64,000 bases of DNA from Naegleria gruberi (Eukaryota): the NCBI GenBank assembly GCA_000004985.1, contig GG738851.1. One strand, given 5' to 3'. The translations under genes were made by a program, and so were the position numbers. Positions within the stretch are counted from its first letter, which is position 1; each line of letters starts with the position of its first letter. Below, one piece after another: positions 14,046 through 52,651 of the stretch. The notes beneath the pieces were generated by a model. That model did no database searches. It saw only the letters and a list, made by a program, of their open reading frames with translations, and was not told where the DNA came from.

Positions 14046-14142
14046 TTTTTTTGTAAAGTTTTTAACAAAGAAGTTCTTGTTTCAATGTTAGTTCCTCAAT
14101 TTAGTTCTTATACGTATTCATATCTTTTTAAGATGATCGTAA

Positions 14143-14231
14143 GGCGGCTTAGCACAGTGGCAGTGCATCAGTCTTGTAGGCAGAAATGCTGAGATAACTG
14201 AGGGTCGAGGGTTCAATTCCCTCAGTCGCCT
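14143..14231 (+). tRNA. tRNA-Thr(UGU) with a 17-nt intron
   Basis: Cloverleaf read by hand: acceptor GGCGGCT/AGTCGCC (one G-U), D-arm GCAC-AGTGGCA-GTGC, anticodon stem TCAGT/ACTGA, loop CTTGTA|intron GGCAGAAATGCTGAGAT|A, T-arm GAGGG-TTCAATT-CCCTC, discriminator T. A T4 run (CCTTTTGTC) follows as a Pol III terminator. Anticodon TGT. Confidence 0.7.
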
Positions 14232-14629
14232 TTTGTCATTTTCATATTTTTTTACATTCTGTTTACTAGTATGGCAATCAGTAACCAACATATTCTTTAT
14301 TATCATAATAACTTCGGCTGATCATTTTCAAGCCTTCCTTGGTTGTATCCAGACAAGGCTTTCATAAAACTACCAAAAAAAATACATCATCACTATCTGT
14401 GGTTGAAAACACACTCATTGTAGTAGGCTTTTTGATTGTTTCGCAAACATTTCAAAGCCTTTTTTTGCTAATAGTAGTATTGTGTGATCACCATCATCAT
14501 TGTCTGCTCTGATTGTATAAACAACAAAAAGAACAATAACATCACAACGGAGGAATTTTTGATAGTACATATATAAATATTTAATATTTAATTATTATTA
14601 TTTAATAATCGAGAGAGAATATATTCAAA

Positions 14630-24844: not shown

Positions 24845-26515
24845 TTATAATGAATAGTATTTTCCCGAATTGTTTACACTATTGTCACCCTCTTCAGAAG
24901 TTGATGAGATTAGTGAAACACTCTTATCATCTACATTGCCCTTCTTCTGGAATCTCTTGACAAAAGTGAAATCTTCCTTATTGAATTCATAGTATAAAAC
25001 AGATGAAGAAAATACAAACGCCATAACAATGGCACATGATCTCAGTAAGGAATAGAGAGTTATTTCATCTGTTAGTTTGGCAGCCAATAAATTTAAATCA
25101 ATTGCTGTGAACCCTTGTAAAATTGCAAGGCAAAAGGCACCCAATTTGAAATACTAATTTAACATACAGTAAAAATCATAAAAATGAAGAAAATGGAAAC
25201 TTACCTTTGTGCTAAATGCTGAGACATCTGAAATTTTCTTTAGAGTAAAATAGATTATCAGTAGGAATACAAAGCAAGCGGCATGAATAAGGAATTCAAT
25301 GGCCCAAGAAACTGAAATCCACCCAATAACCATGTAAAGTGGACCCACAGTAAATTGGAATATTGCACTAATCAGAACACAACAAGTAATTAAAATAATA
25401 AATATTGAAAATGTTAGACAATAGGAGAGGATGGAGTTTGGTTTCTTTTGTGTCTTGACATACTTCATCAGGCCATACAAGTTAACTAGAATTGGAATAA
25501 GTGCAAAATAATTCACAAATTCTGAAATGGTAGCCAAATATCTAAATGCTGATATCAAATTCAGCAATTCGAAAACTAGAGATAATACTCTCAAAACAGA
25601 AGCCAAAAATATGGCAAGGGATGGTAGTAATTTCATCAAAGAGTATTGATTTCTATCCCTATCCTTTTGAAGTAAATTGATAAGCTTTGGAATGAGGGAA
25701 GAAAAAAGAATGAAAAGAGATAGAGCTGAAAATGAAATTATCCCAGTGTATGCAGTGAAATCTATAATAAATTCGGTAAGAGCTCTCTTTTTGCACCCCA
25801 TACCAAACATGTTAGAATTCACACAATAGCACAAGTATGAATAATCTAGATATGGTGAAATGAATGGCACTCCAAAGTTACTATGTCCACAAAATCTAGC
25901 ATCTCTCGGAAAATCCTCCAACATGGATCGTATTGTAGCATTTGAATTTTTACAATTATTATTTTCAATTCTCTCATTAAATGATTTGTATCCTTTTGCA
26001 TTACTACAATATTTACAATAATTAATAAAATCAAATATCTCACTTCGATTGTATGCATAATTTTCACACAAATCAATGCATGTCAAATTATTTCTCTCTT
26101 CCACAATTTTAAACGATTGACAAACATCCAATAAACTCAAATCACTAATTTCAGGGAAGGCAATGGTTGGATAATCCTCCACATGCCAAAACTCTTCCAC
26201 AGGAAGAGGAACTGTGTTATCGGGCAGAATGACCCTTTCACATTCTACAGATGGCATCTTTGGATTTTTAAATATTTCATATTTTGATCCTAACTTTCCA
26301 ATCAAGGAAGCACTCGATGATTTACATTTCCATTGTCCCAACATTTCGGAAGATGATGATTCTACCACTCCACAATATATTATTTCCATCATGAATATTA
26401 TAATTAATAATAAATTAAAATTATTCCGCCGACACTTCCAATTCATCGAATTAATCGAATGTGATGAGGAATGGAGAAAAACACTCAGTGAAGGGTTGAC
26501 TAGAGGTTTTGCCAT
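24845..26515 (-). CDS. Cys-rich ectodomain + 7TM receptor-like protein (frizzled/smoothened-like architecture). Model: complement(join(24845..25153, 25205..26515)).
   Basis: N-terminal signal, then a roughly 230-aa region with about 20 Cys, then six to seven hydrophobic helices. A 51-nt intron (25154..25204; donor AAG|GTAAGT, acceptor TTAAATTAG|) joins in phase 0 to the listed ORF 24845..25144, continuing ...STK|YFKLGAFCLAILQGF.... Confidence 0.5.
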
Positions 26516-27161: not shown

Positions 27162-27242
27162 GCAGGGGTTCCCGAGTGGTCAAAGGGGGTAGACTCAAGT
27201 TCTACTGCGCAAGCTTCGTGGGTTCAAATCCCACCTTCTGCA
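27162..27242 (+). tRNA. tRNA-Leu(CAA), class II with long variable arm, no intron
   Basis: Acceptor GCAGGGG/CTTCTGC (two G-U), D-loop GAGTGGTCAAA, anticodon stem GTAGA/TCTAC, loop CTCAAGT, long variable arm, T-arm GTGGG-TTCAAAT-CCCAC, discriminator A. A T4 run (GTTTTGTC) follows. Confidence 0.7.
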
Positions 27243-27827: not shown

Positions 27828-27945
27828 GGCTACGGCCATATCACGATGAATGCACCTCATCCCGTCCGATTTGAGAAGTTAAGCATCGTCGAGCCACATC
27901 AATACTGAGGTTGGAGACAACTTGGGAACCTGTGGTGCAGTAGTC
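27828..27945 (+). rRNA. 5S rRNA gene, copy 1
   Basis: GGCTACGGCCATATCACG...CATCCCGTCCGATTTGAGAAGTTAAGC...GGTTGGAGACAACTTGGGAACCTGTGGTGCAGTAGTC. The core CATCCCGTCCGATyTGnGAAGTTAAGC and the helix I pairing GGCTAC/GTAGTC match eukaryotic 5S. It differs from copies 2 and 3 at GCAGTAG versus GCTGTAG. The first T5 run lies about 25 nt past the 3' end rather than immediately after it. Confidence 0.85.
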
Positions 27946-28113
27946 ATGGCTTATTTAGATTTCTTTTTCTTTTAAATCCAAGAATGATTTAATTTCTTCC
28001 ACTTGTTACCGTTCCACCATGCATAAAGAGGTTTCACACCCTTTTTTACATGTCTATGAGCCTTCCTATCAGCCCATCCCTTTTCTCTTCTTCAAAGAAC
28101 TTGTTATTTGGTC

Positions 28114-28743: not shown

Positions 28744-29652
28744 TCATTCAACAATTCGATTGACTTGTTTGGCCAAAATATGACCATCATCATCATATTC
28801 GCTCTTAACATAATTAAATATCGATTCAGCATCGAAAGCTACTACACATATTTCCTTTGGCTCCATCATCCCAAATACAAAGTCACTACTAACTCCACAA
28901 TGGTAATTGAGCTTATTCCATTCCATTTTTCTAATATGACAGTAAAAAGATGTACAAAATCTATCTTTCACTCCTTGTCCTGATTTACCAACATATAATA
29001 TTGGTAACCTCTTTGAAACAATAAAATAGATAGAATTTGGTTTGTAAATGCCGACTGAGTGTTTTTTGAAAAAGTTAGAGCTCACAATTTCGGCAAGTAC
29101 TTGTGAAGGCCATGTGGGGTATGGTTTTTCGTCAATAATGGTATCATCCGAGATAGTACATTCTTTATATTTGCCAGAATTGCCTACAAAGAATGGAATA
29201 TTACGGTATTCGCTCTTCTTCCAATCGCCATCTTTCCAGTCATAATACTTGTCTATTTGATTGAAAAACAATTCCTCTAAACTATACGGAAATTTGGCAC
29301 CAGGCAAGACATTGTTTGGGAATCTATTCCTCAATTCTTTCTTCAACTCTACCAATGATTTCTTTTTAAACAACTCACTTAATTGTTTATCTTGTTCGAT
29401 GATTTTAGGTATACATGGTTTGACATGAGCCTTATTGATCAATATAGGTGAAGAAGTAATTTGAAAGGGTTCATTCTTTACGAATAGTGAATACATGTTA
29501 CCTTTGTCCACAACTCCTGATACGTTTCCATCATTATCCAGAAACAGTTTAACATCGATACTACCTTGCTTGAGCTTGTTTGTAATCTCCTCGTATGAAA
29601 TGTCAAAGAATTGAACCTCAATTCTTAGATTTGAATTGCTTTTGTTCATCAT
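28744..29652 (-). CDS. Orphan protein with a C-terminal GIY-YIG-like nuclease motif
   Basis: 302 aa from the ATG at 29652. The C-terminal segment SIYFIVSKRLPILYVGKSGQGVKDRFCTSFYCHIRK fits the GIY-(10-11)-YIG-...-R-...-H spacing of GIY-YIG modules. The rest is unrelated to known families. Its paralog is 31423..31890. Confidence 0.45.
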   Translation of the reverse strand: MMNKSNSNLRIEVQFFDISYEEITNKLKQGSIDVKLFLDNDGNVSGVVDKGNMYSLFVKNEPFQITSSPILINKAHVKPCIPKIIEQDKQLSELFKKKSLVELKKELRNRFPNNVLPGAKFPYSLEELFFNQIDKYYDWKDGDWKKSEYRNIPFFVGNSGKYKECTISDDTIIDEKPYPTWPSQVLAEIVSSNFFKKHSVGIYKPNSIYFIVSKRLPILYVGKSGQGVKDRFCTSFYCHIRKMEWNKLNYHCGVSSDFVFGMMEPKEICVVAFDAESIFNYVKSEYDDDGHILAKQVNRIVE

Positions 29653-30409: not shown

Positions 30410-31318
30410 ATGACTAAAGCATCAGCAAGCAAAACACTCCACGAAACTGTTACAACATTGCACAATAGTGCACAAAGCAGCAATATTTGTGATGATCTTG
30501 CATACTTTTATTTTTTACTAAAGGTAATAAAAGAGGGTGTACATAACTTTACAGATATCCAGAATTTTGATGCAAAAACGAAGGTGAAGAACAGTGCTTT
30601 TTTTGAACAGCTCGTTGAAAAAAGGGTTGGGAATTGTATTGTTCATACTTGTGCGAATTTTGAAGCTATCACGAAAGAATTCTTGAAGAAATGTATTCGC
30701 GAGTCCAAAACACAAGATCTAACGAACAGGCAAGAGCAAGAATATAACGAAATCGCAAAACGCGCATTGAAGCTTGTCCATTGCGAATTATTCGATGCTG
30801 AATGGAATGTAAAGGACAACTATCATTTTGCTCTGAAATTTAACAATAGCATTTTAGATAGTGTCAGGAAAGACCTTTATTGCATTGACATTAACGGAAA
30901 TTTAGTAGATAATAATTTGGAATTTTGGAGATTCGATAAGGAACTGGATTGTAAATATACTGTAATGGAGGTTGACGTAAAGACTGTTCTTAAAGATAAT
31001 TTTTTTGCTTACTTTGATAATTTAAACCTTGAAGATATTAAAAATTTGAATGTAAAGTCTGTTACCGCCGCCAAGATCAGGGACAAAACAGCGGACAATT
31101 ACTCATACAATGATGATGGTATTCAGTTTTATTTTGAAGATTTCGCAAAGAAAAGGGGTTATTTTGTAATTCAACACTGGTGTCTTGTGAAACATATAAT
31201 GGGATGGGAGACATGTATTGAATCAGACTTCAGTAAGCTTAAAGGATGTACTTTACCATCCAATGACCAAAATACAAGCAACGACGAGATTGATGATGTT
31301 TTGAATTTTACTTTATAA
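30410..31318 (+). CDS. Hypothetical protein (302 aa)
   Basis: ATG-initiated ORF with no recognisable domain. Head-to-head partner of 29902..30351. Confidence 0.4.
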   Translation: MTKASASKTLHETVTTLHNSAQSSNICDDLAYFYFLLKVIKEGVHNFTDIQNFDAKTKVKNSAFFEQLVEKRVGNCIVHTCANFEAITKEFLKKCIRESKTQDLTNRQEQEYNEIAKRALKLVHCELFDAEWNVKDNYHFALKFNNSILDSVRKDLYCIDINGNLVDNNLEFWRFDKELDCKYTVMEVDVKTVLKDNFFAYFDNLNLEDIKNLNVKSVTAAKIRDKTADNYSYNDDGIQFYFEDFAKKRGYFVIQHWCLVKHIMGWETCIESDFSKLKGCTLPSNDQNTSNDEIDDVLNFTL

Positions 31319-31422: not shown

Positions 31423-31890
31423 TCATTTCTTTATATTGTTAAGATTTAATTTTACAATTCTTTGGCGAATATGTTTAATATCAACGGAGTGTTTTTTGCA
31501 AAACTTTGAGTCCAATATAGTAGCCAACTCTAATGATGACCAAGTAACAACTGGATCCTTGTTCTTAATTATAGAGTCAGATATGGTGCATTCTTCATAC
31601 TTTAAAGATCTGTTTGCCAAGAAGAATGGAATGTGACAGTATTCATTATTTTTCCAATCCCCACCTTTCCAATTGTTAAGGTTGTCAATCTTATTGAAAT
31701 AAGACTCCTCTCCGTTTCCAGATAAACTTGGTAATATATTCGTTGGGTATCTTTTTCTAGTTTGTTCCTTCATTTTAACAAACAATTTTTCATCGAACAA
31801 TTTCTTCAATTCTTTATCTTGTACAACGAACAAAGGCAGGTATTTGATGGGACCTTGATTGAGTGAAGTTGATTTGTCCTCTTGATTCAA
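31423..31890 (-). pseudogene. 5'- and 3'-truncated duplicate of the 28744..29652 gene (lacks the N-terminal ~55 aa, any ATG, and the GIY-YIG-like C-terminus)
   Basis: The translated region HVFIKSELNQEDKSTSLNQGPIKYLPLFVVQDKELKKLFDEK...KRYPTNILPS...GGDWKNNEYCHIPFF...YEECTISDS...KKHSV aligns along its length to residues ~56-215 of the intact copy. The listed start is a TTG and the frame has no ATG. The 5' flank motif CATTTCTTTATAATTA(TTA)AGATTTCTATTTACAA is shared (29670..29705 versus 31975..32010). Confidence 0.45.
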
Positions 31891-32175: not shown

Positions 32176-32586
32176 TTAAGAAATTGATTTCTGTTTCAAT
32201 TTACGCTTGTAAATATCAACTTTCTTATTCTTCTTGCCACCTCTTCTATTCTTTCTATTCTTTCTATTCTTCTTTCTGTAAGTGTCAATTCTTCTCTTCT
32301 TATTAAATCTTCTCTTCTTTCCATAAACATCAATCTTCTTTCTGATAATTCCCTTCTTTCCAAATTTCTTCCATCCTCTTCTCTTTCTTCCATAGGTGTC
32401 AATGTAGTTGTTGAGCTTTCTATTCTTCTTTCTCTTCTTGAGATTTCTCTTCTTGTTATTCTTTCTAATGAACAAGGAAAGTGTTGAGGCAGCAGTTGAT
32501 TCTTCTGCAGAAACTCCAGAAGTGAAAGAAAGTGCAAGAATGGCCAAAGTCAAGGCAATCAATAAGATTGAAACAAATCTTTTCAT
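32176..32586 (-). CDS. Secreted, extremely basic tandem-repeat protein
   Basis: Signal peptide MKRFVSILLIALTLAILALSFTSGVSA, then four to five repeats of (I/V)D(T/V/I)YG(R/K)KRR embedded in K/R runs. The alternative listed frame 32196..32537 (RRE-rich) is an artefact of the same repeat DNA. Confidence 0.4.
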   Translation of the reverse strand: MKRFVSILLIALTLAILALSFTSGVSAEESTAASTLSLFIRKNNKKRNLKKRKKNRKLNNYIDTYGRKRRGWKKFGKKGIIRKKIDVYGKKRRFNKKRRIDTYRKKNRKNRKNRRGGKKNKKVDIYKRKLKQKSIS

Positions 32587-33328
32587 TTTTTGTTTTTTGA
32601 TTGTGTTTGAGAAGTGAAACATGTTTCAACAGTATTTAAATGTTTGAAAAGAATAGTTTGATTAGTATATTGATTTTTATGATTTTCCATAAAGAGAGTA
32701 GCCACAGATTTTGGACATTGTACATTTGGTCTTTGTTAATCGGTGCGGATAATTGAACAAGAACAGAATGAAAGAACTTCAATGGTTGGATTGTGCTCAA
32801 AGATGTGGAATATCTTGGAATGAAAAAAGTTCCAATATTTAAAGAACGAAAGGACTCTGTAAACTGTTGGTGGACTTTTTGAATTAATCTGATACATCGT
32901 ACTTTTTTTATTCTTGTGCTAGTAGTTTCAAGTTGTCCAATGAAGAGTGGGAATCCTCTCTTTAACTTTCGTATATTTTGAAAATGAGATAAACAAGAGG
33001 TGCTTACCACTCTATACCAAGTTATTGTTAGATGAATTTGCACTCGAGTCAAATTTTTGACACTATTGCCAATAATTGAGTTTTGATTTTTTCACCTTAG
33101 GAGTAATGATATCTTAGCTACCTCTCATTTAATTTTAAAGATTTCATCTCTAAAAACCACAGAGAAAATAATAAAAGATTGGACTCTTTCATTTTTTTTT
33201 ACAAAAAACAAGGTAATATACAAGTTATGAGATAGGTTTTGGATATAATAGTATATATTTCTTTGCAAAGAAATTCAATAAACCTTACCAAGTATGTGAG
33301 AACACAAATTAAGGAACAAAGATAAAAA

Positions 33329-33446
33329 GACTACAGCACCACAGGTTCCCAAGTTGTCTCCAACCTCAGTACTGATGTGGCTCGACGATGCTTAACTTCT
33401 CAAATCGGACGGGATGAGGTGCATTCATCGTGATATGGCCATAGCC
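33329..33446 (-). rRNA. 5S rRNA gene, copy 2 (inverted relative to copy 1)
   Basis: Reverse complement matches copy 1 along the full 118 nt apart from GGCTATGG (versus GGCTACGG) and GCTGTAGTC (versus GCAGTAGTC). It is immediately followed on its own strand by TTTTTATC, a Pol III terminator. Confidence 0.85.
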
Positions 33447-33513: not shown

Positions 33514-34970
33514 ATGTCGCAACATAAGAACGTTGTTATCATTGGTGGAGGAGTGGCCGGTTTGTATGCTGCCAAAACACTTTCGGATAACCAAGTTTCG
33601 AATTTTATAATTTTGGAAGCAAGTTCAAGACTTGGAGGAAGAGTTTGCTCTGATTCCGAAAGAGGTATCGAATTAGGAGGTGTGTTTACAACCAACACAT
33701 TTAAATACTAATATTTAAACTACTTTTAAAACAGCTGAATATGTTCATGGAGAGGAAACTATTTTGTGGGATATTTTGGTCAACCAATTAAATGTGGAAT
33801 TGGAATTTAATCATGACATGACAAAACTAACTCCAAAAGAATGTGGATTGGGATTAGTAGTTGGTGCGTAATTTATCAAATTATTGAAATTGGAATTAAT
33901 GAAATTTCAAAGATGGGAAAATGCTTCAAGCTGACAATCCTATATTTGCAGAATTGGATGAAATTCTTGAAAAGCTAATAAATGATGAAGAGCTAAAATT
34001 TGCAAAAGATATGACACTTAAGGAATGGCTGATTTGGAGGGAAATTCCAGAAAAGTATCACTTGTTAGTTGACTCAACAATTGCCCAGGAAAATGCAACT
34101 TGTATTGATGTGTACAGCGCTAAGGGAGCTCAAGAAGATTTAATTGCTGAGTTTAATAGTGAATTTGGAGATGGGAATTACTTTCTTAAGGGAAAGAATA
34201 CTTTGGAAAATTTGATAATTCCATATTTGGTTAAATCCATCCAACAAGAACAAATTAGATTGGATTATGCTGTGGATTCCATTGATTACACTTCCAACCA
34301 AATCAAAATTAATGGAGGCGATATTATTTGTGATAAGATTATCCTCACTGTTCCATTAACAACTTTACAACATAATTTAATTCAATTTACTCCAGATTTA
34401 TCACCAATCAAAAAGCATTTAATTCAAAATCAATTCAACATGAATGGTGGCACCAAGATTATTCTCAATTATAAGAAACCATTTTGGAGAGAACAATTCC
34501 CAAATGTGAATGTTGTTTGTGTTGGAGATGATGATCCCTTAATTTCTCAATTCTGGTTTTCGAGCACATCTGAGGAACAATCTGAGAAATTTGGACACGT
34601 AATTACTGGATTTTCAATGAGTAATAGAGCAAATTATGGAATTGTGATGGGAGAGGAGAAGGTTAAGGATCATTTCAGAAAAATGATTCAAAATATTTGT
34701 GGATTAACAAGTGAAAATGATGGATTTATTGGTGGAATGGTAAGGAATTGGCAAGATGTTGAGCACATTTCTGGAGCTTATGCATCGGTCAATACTTCAG
34801 AAGAATCGAGACAAAACTATATTGGAAACCCTAGATTGGCCCTCTCTCAACCTATTGAATCAAAGATTTATTTTGCAGGTGAATTGTTCTGTACTCATTC
34901 GCCTGCTACTATTCATGGAGCAATGGAAACTGGAAGAGATGCTGCTTTGAGAGTAATAGCCGAAATGTAA
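33514..34970 (+). CDS. Flavin-containing amine oxidase (polyamine-oxidase-like). Model: join(33514..33679, 33735..33863, 33913..34970).
   Basis: Exon 1 has the FAD Rossmann fold VVIIGGGVAGLYAAKTLS...ILEASSRLGGRV. A 55-nt intron (GG|GTGTGT...AAAACAG|) and a 49-nt intron (VV|GTGCGT...TTCAAAG|) restore ...RGIELGAEYVHGEETILWD...GLGLVVDGKMLQADNPIF.... The total is 1353 nt (451 codons). The C-terminus has the amine-oxidase motif ...YFAGELFC..HGAMETG. Confidence 0.7.
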
Positions 34971-35208: not shown

Positions 35209-35946
35209 ATGTTTCTAATAGAAAACAATAACAAAAAAAGAAACAAAATGATTATGCAAGAATTTGAACCAAAGAGAAGAAACACAAAGATTTCAACAAG
35301 TTTTGATGAAAGTCCAATTACTAATATTTCACTTTCGAATAAGAATACTTCAAGTTTCGATGAACAAGTTCCAATTTTCAAAGCAAAGAGACAAACACCA
35401 TTCCCATATTTGAAGAGAAAGTCAATCAGAATTGACTTGGTATTGAAGCAACAAAAACTTGCTCAAAAGAAGAAGAATGAACAAAAGTTATTGGAATCTT
35501 TGAGAAATGACAAGAAACTGTTAGAAAATGAAAACATGACCTTGAAGGGAAGAATTATGCAAATGGAATTTATACTTCAACAATTAAAATCTACCAGACC
35601 TAGCACACAAACTCACTCAACTCAACCAAAGAAATCTAACAAGTCAACTGACTCAATTCAATGCACCAAATGTCAAAAGTGCCTCTCCTCCAAATATTTC
35701 AAATATCATGATAGAATTTGTGGAAACACCAAGCTCAATCGTTTACTTTCAGAAACGGATTTGAAAAGATTACAATTTCTAAGAAAGAATCAAAAAACTG
35801 TATTAAATTTCTCACCAAAGAATGACTGGAGAAGAAAGAGGGAAGAGTTTTTGGCTCAAATTAAGAGCGCCCAAAAGAAGCACTCTTCAAATTGTATTAT
35901 TTTCTTTAGAACACAAGAAAAGAGTTTCTATAAATCAATAAAGTAA
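35209..35946 (+). CDS. Hypothetical basic protein with a coiled-coil/leucine-zipper-like segment and a C-terminal C2HC-like Cys cluster
   Basis: 245 aa from an ATG. Contains KRKSIRIDLVLKQQKLAQKKKNEQKLLESLRNDKKLLENENMTLKGRIMQMEFILQQLK, then CTKCQKCLSSKYFKYHDRICGN. Confidence 0.35.
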   Translation: MFLIENNNKKRNKMIMQEFEPKRRNTKISTSFDESPITNISLSNKNTSSFDEQVPIFKAKRQTPFPYLKRKSIRIDLVLKQQKLAQKKKNEQKLLESLRNDKKLLENENMTLKGRIMQMEFILQQLKSTRPSTQTHSTQPKKSNKSTDSIQCTKCQKCLSSKYFKYHDRICGNTKLNRLLSETDLKRLQFLRKNQKTVLNFSPKNDWRRKREEFLAQIKSAQKKHSSNCIIFFRTQEKSFYKSIK

Positions 35947-35985: not shown

Positions 35986-36069
35986 TCCGATGAGACGGAA
36001 TCGAACCGCCGACCACAGGATAACAGTTTCAGCTACAGTCCCATGCTCTACCAGCTGAGCTATCATCGG
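35986..36069 (-). tRNA. tRNA-Tyr(GUA) with an 11-nt intron
   Basis: Reverse complement reads CCGATGA-TA-GCTC-AGCTGGTA-GAGC-A-TGGGA-CTGTAG|CTGAAACTGTT|A-TCCTG-TGGTC-GGCGG-TTCGATT-CCGTC-TCATCGG-A. The acceptor stem is perfect, the anticodon is GTA, and the intron sits at the canonical 37/38 position. A T4 run follows on the gene strand. Confidence 0.8.
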
Positions 36070-52347: not shown

Positions 52348-52533
52348 CGGAGGAAGAAGAATTGAAGTTGGAGAGGTGTCCTCTATAAATCTTTTTTTAC
52401 TGTTGTTTTTGAATTGTTATGATTGTTCAATTAAGGAAATTTACATTCCCGCCAAATATTAAATTCTCATTGTAAAGATCTTGAATCGAACAAAAAATTT
52501 GAGTTAAAGTGATATTTGTTGAAGAAAACAAAA

Positions 52534-52651
52534 GACTACAGCACCACAGGTTCCCAAGTTGTCTCCAACCTCAGTACTGATGTGGCTCGACGATGCTTAA
52601 CTTCTCAAATCGGACGGGATGAGGTGCATTCATCGTGATATGGCCGTAGCC
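52534..52651 (-). rRNA. 5S rRNA gene, copy 3
   Basis: Identical in length (118 nt) and nearly identical in sequence to copy 2. It has GGCTACGG at the 5' end like copy 1, and a Pol III terminator TTTTGTTTTC directly after the 3' end. It shares the 51-bp upstream element with copy 1. Confidence 0.85.

Follow-up and report, generated by a model that had tools for sequence, protein, structure and literature searches.

A constrained, unannotated gene in Naegleria gruberi for a strongly basic protein that may be a secreted polycation

What is encoded by an open reading frame (ORF) in which almost half of the predicted mature protein consists of lysine and arginine, and is such a frame a gene at all? 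The question is raised by positions 32176..32586 on the minus strand of a 64,000-nucleotide stretch of Naegleria gruberi DNA (contig GG738851.1, assembly GCA_000004985.1), in the following called the window. A first-pass annotation made from the sequence letters had described the locus as a secreted orphan protein of tandem repeats, possibly antimicrobial or nucleic-acid binding, and had left room for an artefact of repetitive DNA. The present analysis shows that the ORF is a real, intact and selectively constrained gene which is unannotated in the N. gruberi NEG-M reference. The reading preferred here, with a probability of roughly 0.4, is that its product is a secreted or vacuolar polycation that would bind polyanionic targets such as bacterial surfaces.

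The evidence for a gene comes from a DNA comparison with an environmental contig, L002, which carries a close relative of the N. gruberi paralogue P0001. Over 127 aligned codons the synonymous divergence (dS) is 0.35 and the non-synonymous divergence (dN) 0.089, a ratio (omega) of 0.26, and the differences are distributed as 11, 10 and 26 over the first, second and third codon positions. Three indels of 3, 15 and 6 nucleotides separate the two sequences, all of them in frame, and small in-frame indels in spacers of the NRK type also set the window copy apart from its paralogues. The five other frames each contain 4-17 stop-containing codon pairs with omega values of 0.63-1.75; the frame of the ORF is the only one that is free of stops and has an omega below 0.6. 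Because purifying selection is confined to this frame, the ORF is not a pure artefact of AAGAAG-rich DNA, as had been considered at first. Alternate and antisense frames are indeed partly open (113 amino acids in another sense frame, 69 and 40 in antisense), but none of them is conserved and they appear to be by-products of the AAG/AGA-rich sequence.

Nor is the gene the orphan that it was taken for, with five paralogues in the same genome and homologues in environmental sequences. The window protein matches four N. gruberi proteins (P0001-P0004) at E-values of 2.4e-49 to 2.4e-26 and a query coverage of 57-95%; these annotated relatives are the 'predicted proteins' NAEGRDRAFT_71365, _71069, _68008 and _68479 (EFC40780, EFC41070, EFC43980 and EFC43417), on scaffolds of 350, 352, 418 and 462 kb. 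An exhaustive HMMER profile search of 1.84 billion representative proteins gave five clusters at E<=1e-3, one of them new (P0009, NAEGRDRAFT_50395, EFC42503, on a 384-kb scaffold), and nothing outside N. gruberi and an environmental group in ENA. The environmental relatives are the three short metagenome contigs L001, L002 and L003, with one protein cluster (P0005) at 44% identity. Identity to the annotated paralogues is 71-85% in local BLASTP alignments and 68-93% over aligned columns, and the paralogues share the signal peptide, propiece, cores, basic spacers and charge of the window copy that are described below. The window protein, with either of its possible start codons, has no exact match in a collection of 15 billion protein sequences and none of the family matches lies on the scaffold of the window (693,645 bp), so that the window holds a sixth detectable N. 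gruberi copy, which is unannotated. A tblastn search of the window with the protein found no second copy, and JGI metagenome contigs scanned by peptide patterns and by a DNA pattern for the signal peptide contained no relatives. The family appears to be confined to Naegleria-type sequences, with at least six copies in N. gruberi; that no member is annotated in the proteomes of other Naegleria species carries little weight, since ORFs that are small and of low complexity are easily missed.

Two of the annotated relatives have unusual gene models. Residues 1-130 of P0009 are a family member with a signal peptide and five xDxY cores and residues 436-557 are a NOT2/3/5 C-terminal domain (PF04153, E 4e-35); this combination of a family member with a CCR4-NOT subunit domain is almost certainly a chimeric gene model, in which a GGTAAG formed by Gly-Lys codons was perhaps mistaken for a splice donor. 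In P0004 (NAEGRDRAFT_68479) an aberrant HTQTQTQ sequence stands at the N-terminus where the signal peptide is expected, and this is a false start of the gene model. The N. gruberi annotation has missed one copy, fused one to a CCR4-NOT subunit and given one a false N-terminus, and with copies missed or mis-modelled in this way the family would be overlooked in N. gruberi proteomics and transcriptomics.

The coding sequence is complete, with 136 codons from ATG and a TAA stop, one residue fewer than the 137 first given. The part behind the predicted signal peptide has 109 residues, of which 31 lysines and 18 arginines make up 45.0%, in agreement with the earlier estimate of about 45%; with only six acidic residues the net charge is +43. 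Cysteine and histidine are both absent from this mature part, and the share of lysine and arginine rises to 51% over residues 41-136. The polybasic region (residues 41-129; 32200..32466, on the minus strand like all features of the gene given below) consists of lysine/arginine runs with asparagine and glycine, contains four DxY cores and is predicted to be disordered. Lysine is encoded by AAG in 81% of cases, a share that is 42% across the window's long ORFs, and arginine by AGA in 18 of 19 cases compared with 66%, a skew that is compatible with either expression-linked codon bias or repeat slippage.

The four [IV]DxY cores start at residues 62, 85, 100 and 123 and hold all four aspartates and four of the five tyrosines of the mature part. 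In 200,000 composition-preserving shuffles of the mature sequence the maximum was two such cores, and four were reached in none. Core 1, IDTYG (residues 62-66; 32389..32403), is followed by RKRR and is present in the N. gruberi paralogues, with YIGKKS instead in the distant P0005. Core 2, IDVYG (residues 85-89; 32320..32334), is flanked by RKK and KKRR and is deleted in P0005 and P0007. Core 3, IDTY (residues 100-103; 32278..32289), lies in KKRRIDTYRKK and is the best-conserved core of the family, and core 4, VDIY (residues 123-126; 32209..32220), lies in KKVDIYKRK and forms the extreme C-terminus in all other members. The tandem units of (I/V)DxYG(R/K)KRR that had been proposed are only partly recovered. 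The [IV]DxY core recurs four times, but the full form with xDxYG-(K/R)KRR is found in two cores (IDTYGRKRR and IDVYGKKRR; the others read IDTYRKKNRK and VDIYKRK) and the spacing is irregular at 23, 15 and 23 residues. In the DNA, Tandem Repeats Finder detects only short repeats of 9-27 nucleotides of the AAG/AGA type. Instead of forming a regular tandem array, the short motif recurs within a basic matrix of low complexity.

The N-terminus was judged by heuristic rules (hydropathy, residues at -3 and -1, flanking charge) across eight family members. The product starts with MKRFVSILLIALTLAILALSFTSGVSA, directly followed by EE. Its predicted signal peptide, residues 1-27 (32506..32586), has an n-region MKR, an h-region FVSILLIALTLAILALSF and a c-region TSGVSA, with a predicted cut after A27. 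The Kyte-Doolittle maximum over 15 residues is 2.96 in the window copy and 2.8-3.0 across the family. All eight members have MKR in the n-region, a strong hydrophobic core, V at -3, A, C or G at -1 and then the acidic EE, and the small residue at -1 is kept despite sequence change (VSA, VNC, VNG and VRG, each before EE). By these rules the proposed signal peptide is supported, and the window copy carries the whole N-terminal pattern of the family, MKR[FI][VI]SILLIALTL... followed by the -3/-1 rule, EE and ASTLSx[YF]I. The signal peptide is the best-conserved part of the family alignment and its codons are under the strongest constraint, with a dN/dS of 0.14 compared with 0.32 in the mature part. 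It is followed by an acidic to neutral propiece, EESTAASTLSLFI (residues 28-40; 32467..32505), which is kept in the family alignment as EE..ASTLSx[YF]I; the net charge is -2 over the first 13 residues past the predicted cleavage site.

No domain was found when the protein was searched against Pfam, and a PDB sequence search gave no meaningful match; its sole line, a ribosomal protein at E 0.64, was dismissed as compositional noise. AlphaFold2 with the family alignment returned a mean predicted local distance difference test score (pLDDT) of 60 and a predicted template modelling score (pTM) of 0.18, with a pLDDT of about 50-60 in the polybasic region and near 80 only in the N-terminal hydrophobic helix. 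At these values the all-helix drawing of the product was judged not credible, and going by the model, intrinsic disorder is the most fitting description of the mature part.

Two features of the mature part are kept in the family, the cores and the charge. R98, R99, D101, T102 and Y103 around core 3, and D124 and Y126 in core 4, are invariant in all aligned members, including one at 44% identity. The RRIDTY(G)KK core, present as KRRIDTY in the window copy, and the C-terminal KKVDxYK[RK]K are kept family-wide. Across the family the cores take the form [IVLF]DxY(G) and number from 2 to 5: the distant homologue lacks cores 1 and 2, and five are found in P0009. What had been called a conserved aromatic-glycine core is better described by its aspartate and tyrosine (D101, T102, Y103, D124 and Y126 being invariant), because the glycine is variable: it follows the tyrosine of cores 1 and 2 in the window copy, that of core 3 in P0002, P0005 and P0007 but not here, and never that of core 4. 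The mature net charge is +43 in the window copy and in P0002 and +44 in P0001, P0005 and P0007, so that five of the seven intact members have +43 or +44 although the deepest pair is only 44% identical, with large indels. The charge is also +44 in both L001 and L003, which are separated by 14 non-synonymous changes. The polycation character appears to be the selected property.

Naegleria feeds on bacteria, and charge densities of this order are inherently membrane- and nucleic-acid-active, as in protamine, Tat and PR-39. For these reasons, and because the total charge is kept although the sequence changes, the reading as a secreted or vacuolar polycation is ranked first. The protein would enter the secretory or endolysosomal pathway and might act as a soluble polycation, either whole or as large basic fragments. 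It may bind polyanions electrostatically, in the first place the envelopes of bacteria, within food vacuoles or extracellularly, and in the second place nucleic acids or polyphosphate, and the sparse hydrophobic or aromatic DxY cores could serve as contact or anchor points. A killing or permeabilising activity like that of protamine, Tat or PR-39 would suit a bacterivorous amoeba. The product lacks cysteine, any Pfam or PDB domain and a confidently predicted fold, which fits a disordered electrostatic binder and does not fit an enzyme or a folded toxin.

The trait that defines the cationic peptides is found here as a net charge of +43 over 109 residues behind a signal-peptide-like N-terminus. 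PR-39, molluscidin, protamine and the basic domain of human immunodeficiency virus (HIV) Tat are similar to the window product in lysine/arginine density, in having no stable fold and in their dibasic repeats. YGRKRR and YGKKRR in the window copy resemble the Tat basic domain, YGRKKRR, in a likeness that is only compositional. On the other hand, cationic antimicrobial and cell-penetrating peptides are typically much shorter than a product of about 109 amino acids with +43, and the window protein also differs from them in being made by a protist, in its conserved cores with aspartate and in showing no homology. Strongly cationic peptides kill potently. PR-39, which is one of them, is lethal to N. 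gruberi itself (bioRxiv 10.64898/2026.08.23.746575).

Within the genus a comparison can be made with the naegleriapores, which share with the window product a proposed role as secretory-pathway effectors against ingested or target cells. These are folded, cysteine-rich saposin-like domains, whereas the window product has no cysteine, no SapB match in Pfam and no predicted fold. Membership in this group, with its saposin B domain and six cysteines, was rejected on the zero mature cysteines and the lack of a Pfam match. Naegleriapores were reportedly described by Herbst et al. in 2004 as being released as several peptides from one precursor. As a functional kind, the secreted cationic effector or processed precursor is already known in outline. 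The architecture seen here, some 100 residues of disordered polycation with Asp-Tyr cores and a conserved net charge of +43 or +44, is not. If the product is a secreted polycationic effector, it would be a second kind of Naegleria weapon against bacteria or competitors, unrelated to the saposin-like pore formers, and an unusually long natural polycation of the Tat or protamine type in which net charge, and not sequence, is held constant.

Several observations weigh against a secreted polycation. With 45% lysine and arginine and few hydrophobic residues, the protein is far outside typical amphipathic antimicrobial peptides. The argument from charge conservation amounts essentially to one deep independent comparison, and P0003 (+32) and the N-terminal part of P0009 (+37) deviate from the common value, possibly because of faulty gene models. 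A function of charge only leaves the invariant RRIDTY(G)KK and KKVDxYK[RK]K-stop unexplained, including the aspartates amid lysine and arginine. The hydrophobic core at the N-terminus has 18 residues inside an uncharged run of 24, and could be a signal anchor instead of a cleaved signal. Ten accessions and locus tags of the family, including the tags of all five annotated members and protein and UniProt accessions of most, are absent from the main text of 8 million searchable papers, and six family identifiers are absent from the supplements of an omics paper on N. fowleri and N. gruberi (PMC8296547).

The conserved cores also fit the main and a serious rival reading, that the protein is a precursor of several small peptides, which we hold to be somewhat unlikely. 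Once the signal peptide is removed, the chain would be cut at multibasic sites by a protease of the Golgi or vacuole and then trimmed by a carboxypeptidase. This would release tiny conserved peptides (xIDTY, IDVY and VDIY), with the lysine/arginine runs as processing sites and spacers. Where a glycine precedes the basic cluster, C-terminal amidation could follow, and the peptides might be signals of a pheromone or quorum type or substrates for further modification. Comparable precursors include fungal Kex2-processed repeat proteins (KEPs), ustiloxin-type YAIG precursors, thyrotropin-releasing hormone and yeast alpha-factor. Every core has at least two basic residues on both sides, cores 3 and 4 always keep their aspartate and tyrosine whereas the spacers vary freely, and the number of cores varies from 2 to 5 among members, as multi-copy precursors show. 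A tyrosine with Gly-basic-basic behind it occurs in cores 1 and 2 of the four in the window copy, and in core 3 of P0002, P0005 and P0007. In all other members K[RK]K and then a stop come after the last core, as would be expected if a carboxypeptidase did the trimming. The naegleriapores, which the literature links with precursors, are a precedent within Naegleria for the release of more than one peptide from a single precursor.

Of the four KEP criteria in PMC6339444, three apply to the window protein, namely a signal peptide as predicted by heuristic rules, at least three repeats and KR, RR or KK between them. The family resembles the KEPs (PMC6339444, PMC7329392; alpha-factor, ustiloxin-type) in its predicted signal peptide, in repeated cores between KR/RR/KK and in a variable core number, but it is not fungal, has no sequence homology to them and conserves its total charge. 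Its spacers are almost pure lysine and arginine, and a kexin-type convertase is undocumented in the Naegleria literature. The spacers are also long and irregular, unlike the compact regular units of KEPs, and the cores cover 16-20 of the 136 residues, about 12-15%, which is at or below the KEP threshold of 15% (PMC6339444). A content of 45% lysine and arginine and a conserved charge of +43 or +44 are not needed for mere cleavage sites, the distant homologue has lost cores 1 and 2, the glycine is not conserved and a Pfam scan revealed no evident cluster of modifying enzymes beside the gene. A hint against processing comes from a 2009 domain survey that placed N. gruberi in Discicristata and reported the P-domain of kexin and furin for Heterokonta, Opisthokonta and a single species of Excavata only. 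A literature search found no link between peptide-amidating monooxygenase (PHM/PAL) and Naegleria.

The polycation and precursor readings are compatible with each other, in that cleavage at basic sites could yield both large cationic fragments and small core peptides. A more specific proposal, which we regard as unlikely, is that the family is a heterolobosean multi-copy precursor of peptide signals. Peptides of the type xDxY, some of them possibly amidated through Tyr-Gly-Lys/Arg, would then serve cell-cell communication, such as density sensing or cues for encystment or differentiation. If this were true, it would bring processing in the style of peptide hormones to a deep-branching protist lineage in which none has been described, and peptide signalling to the Heterolobosea.

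The preferred polycation might also serve the amoeba in ways other than attack on other cells, and a lumenal or extracellular role in packaging or adhesion is held to be rather improbable. In packaging, the protein would neutralise and condense one of the amoeba's own polyanions (polyphosphate, extracellular DNA, or acidic glycans in its surface coat or cyst wall), and adhesion to a substrate would depend on lysine and tyrosine chemistry. The evidence from signal peptide, disorder and conserved charge is the same as for an antimicrobial role, and the composition rich in lysine, glycine, tyrosine and asparagine recalls the polybasic cement proteins of marine invertebrates, a resemblance only. 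Tyrosine is however low, with 5 of 109 residues, and no cyst-wall or adhesion domain was found with Pfam. The present analysis gives no way to separate these roles from the antimicrobial one.

It is very unlikely that the hydrophobic core is an uncleaved anchor which makes the product a type II membrane protein, or an otherwise intracellular one, with a basic tail that binds nucleic acid or membranes inside the amoeba. The length of this core for a signal peptide speaks for such an anchor, but MKR before it, the net charge of -2 after it and the strict rule of small residues at -3 and -1 favour an N-in orientation and cleavage.

The window copy differs from the rest of the family at its C-terminus. 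All other members end in KKVD[ILF]YK[RK]K and a stop, and the window copy keeps this motif without the immediate stop. The family stop codon, TAG in L001, L002 and L003 (after YKKK in L001 and L003), is replaced by TTG at 32197..32199, so that the window copy reads ...AAGCGTAAATTGAAA where L002 reads ...AAGCGTAAATAGATT. This TAG to TTG substitution adds a C-terminal extension of seven residues, LKQKSIS (32179..32199), which is unique to the window copy. The lost stop is a derived state and gives no ground to exclude the copy from the family.

That the window copy is a decaying or silent duplicate, or its ORF an artefact of AAG/AGA-rich DNA, is the least probable explanation and hardly credible: the missing annotation in the reference proteome, the lost family stop with its seven added residues and the partly open other frames can be cited for it, but the ORF is intact with signal peptide, propiece, four cores and +43 charge all kept, the frame-specific constraint excludes a pure artefact, the missing annotation is weak evidence because the gene models of the annotated paralogues are poor (the fusion in P0009, the N-terminus of P0004), and the extension sits after KRK, where any processing at basic sites would remove it.

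Upstream of the gene, a 28-nucleotide block, AAAGACCAAATGTACAATGTCCAAAATC (32707..32734, 121-148 nucleotides before the ATG), is identical at 26 of 28 positions to the paralogous locus in L002, and the upstream sequence around it is much less similar. The block is unique in the window, with a chance expectation of 0 matches, and is a possible candidate for a family-specific promoter or 5' leader element. The sequence TTTAAATA (32633..32640, 47-54 nucleotides upstream of the ATG) is aligned with TTTAAAT in L002 and makes a weak candidate for a TATA-like element.

Some further observations concern the environmental contigs. L001 (1-616) and L003 (1-636) carry the distant homologue and come from different samples. 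The ENA gene calls (L001 526-601, L003 546-621) read through an in-frame TAG as glutamine, with a spurious tail of 24 residues (QISFNNF...) as the result; translated with the standard code, both proteins terminate at VD[FL]YKKK. The two contigs start about 5-8 nucleotides apart and their ends coincide exactly; the 87-nucleotide 3' flank is 100% identical, the coding sequence differs at 15 sites, and the 5' flank is diverged with an 11-nucleotide indel. L003 opens with the remnant of an Illumina adapter, CGACGCTCTTCCGATCT. Because of the near-coincident ends, the identical 3' flank and the adapter remnant, both contigs may be derived from transcripts. Positive selection between L001 and L003 (14 non-synonymous to 1 synonymous change, omega 3.3) was considered and rejected as not significant (Fisher p = 0.32).

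The gene had also been placed in a block bracketed by 5S ribosomal RNA (rRNA) genes. The window has a G+C content of 33% and contains three dispersed 5S rRNA genes, copy a at 27828-27946 on the plus strand and copies b (33328-33446) and c (52533-52651) on the minus strand. Copies a and c share about 50 nucleotides immediately upstream (TCGTTAACTAGATTTCTGATAGAGTTGAA.AGTGAATGATTAAGAAAGT), which copy b is without. A mobile or duplicated block was rejected, since the flanks do not align beyond these 50 nucleotides common to a and c only; the supposed brackets are two dispersed 5S genes (a and b) and not a repeat unit.

Among the neighbouring ORFs, 30410-31318 (plus) is 100% identical over 302 amino acids to EFC48291 (NAEGRDRAFT_46517), which places the window in the NEG-M reference genome. 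Its product carries no Pfam domain, and at E<=1e-5 it gave no homologue beyond N. gruberi. Four others of 155-453 amino acids, at 28744-29652 (minus), 31423-31890 (minus), 35209-35946 (plus) and 25154-26515 (minus), have no Pfam match at E<=0.01, and these may also be genes restricted to Naegleria. A flavin amine oxidase gene is found on the plus strand in two ORFs, 33514-33711 and 33921-34970, matching positions 1-37 and 190-443 of the Amino_oxidase profile. The first bears the GxGxxG N-terminus that binds flavin adenine dinucleotide, and the two are presumably separated by an intron of about 210 nucleotides. The window also contains a transfer RNA (tRNA) gene for leucine, tRNA-Leu(CAA), at 27162-27242 (plus) and two tRNA-Thr(TGT) genes, at 14142-14232 (plus, 91 nucleotides) and 35986-36069 (minus, 84 nucleotides), both of which are longer than a standard tRNA and probably contain an intron.

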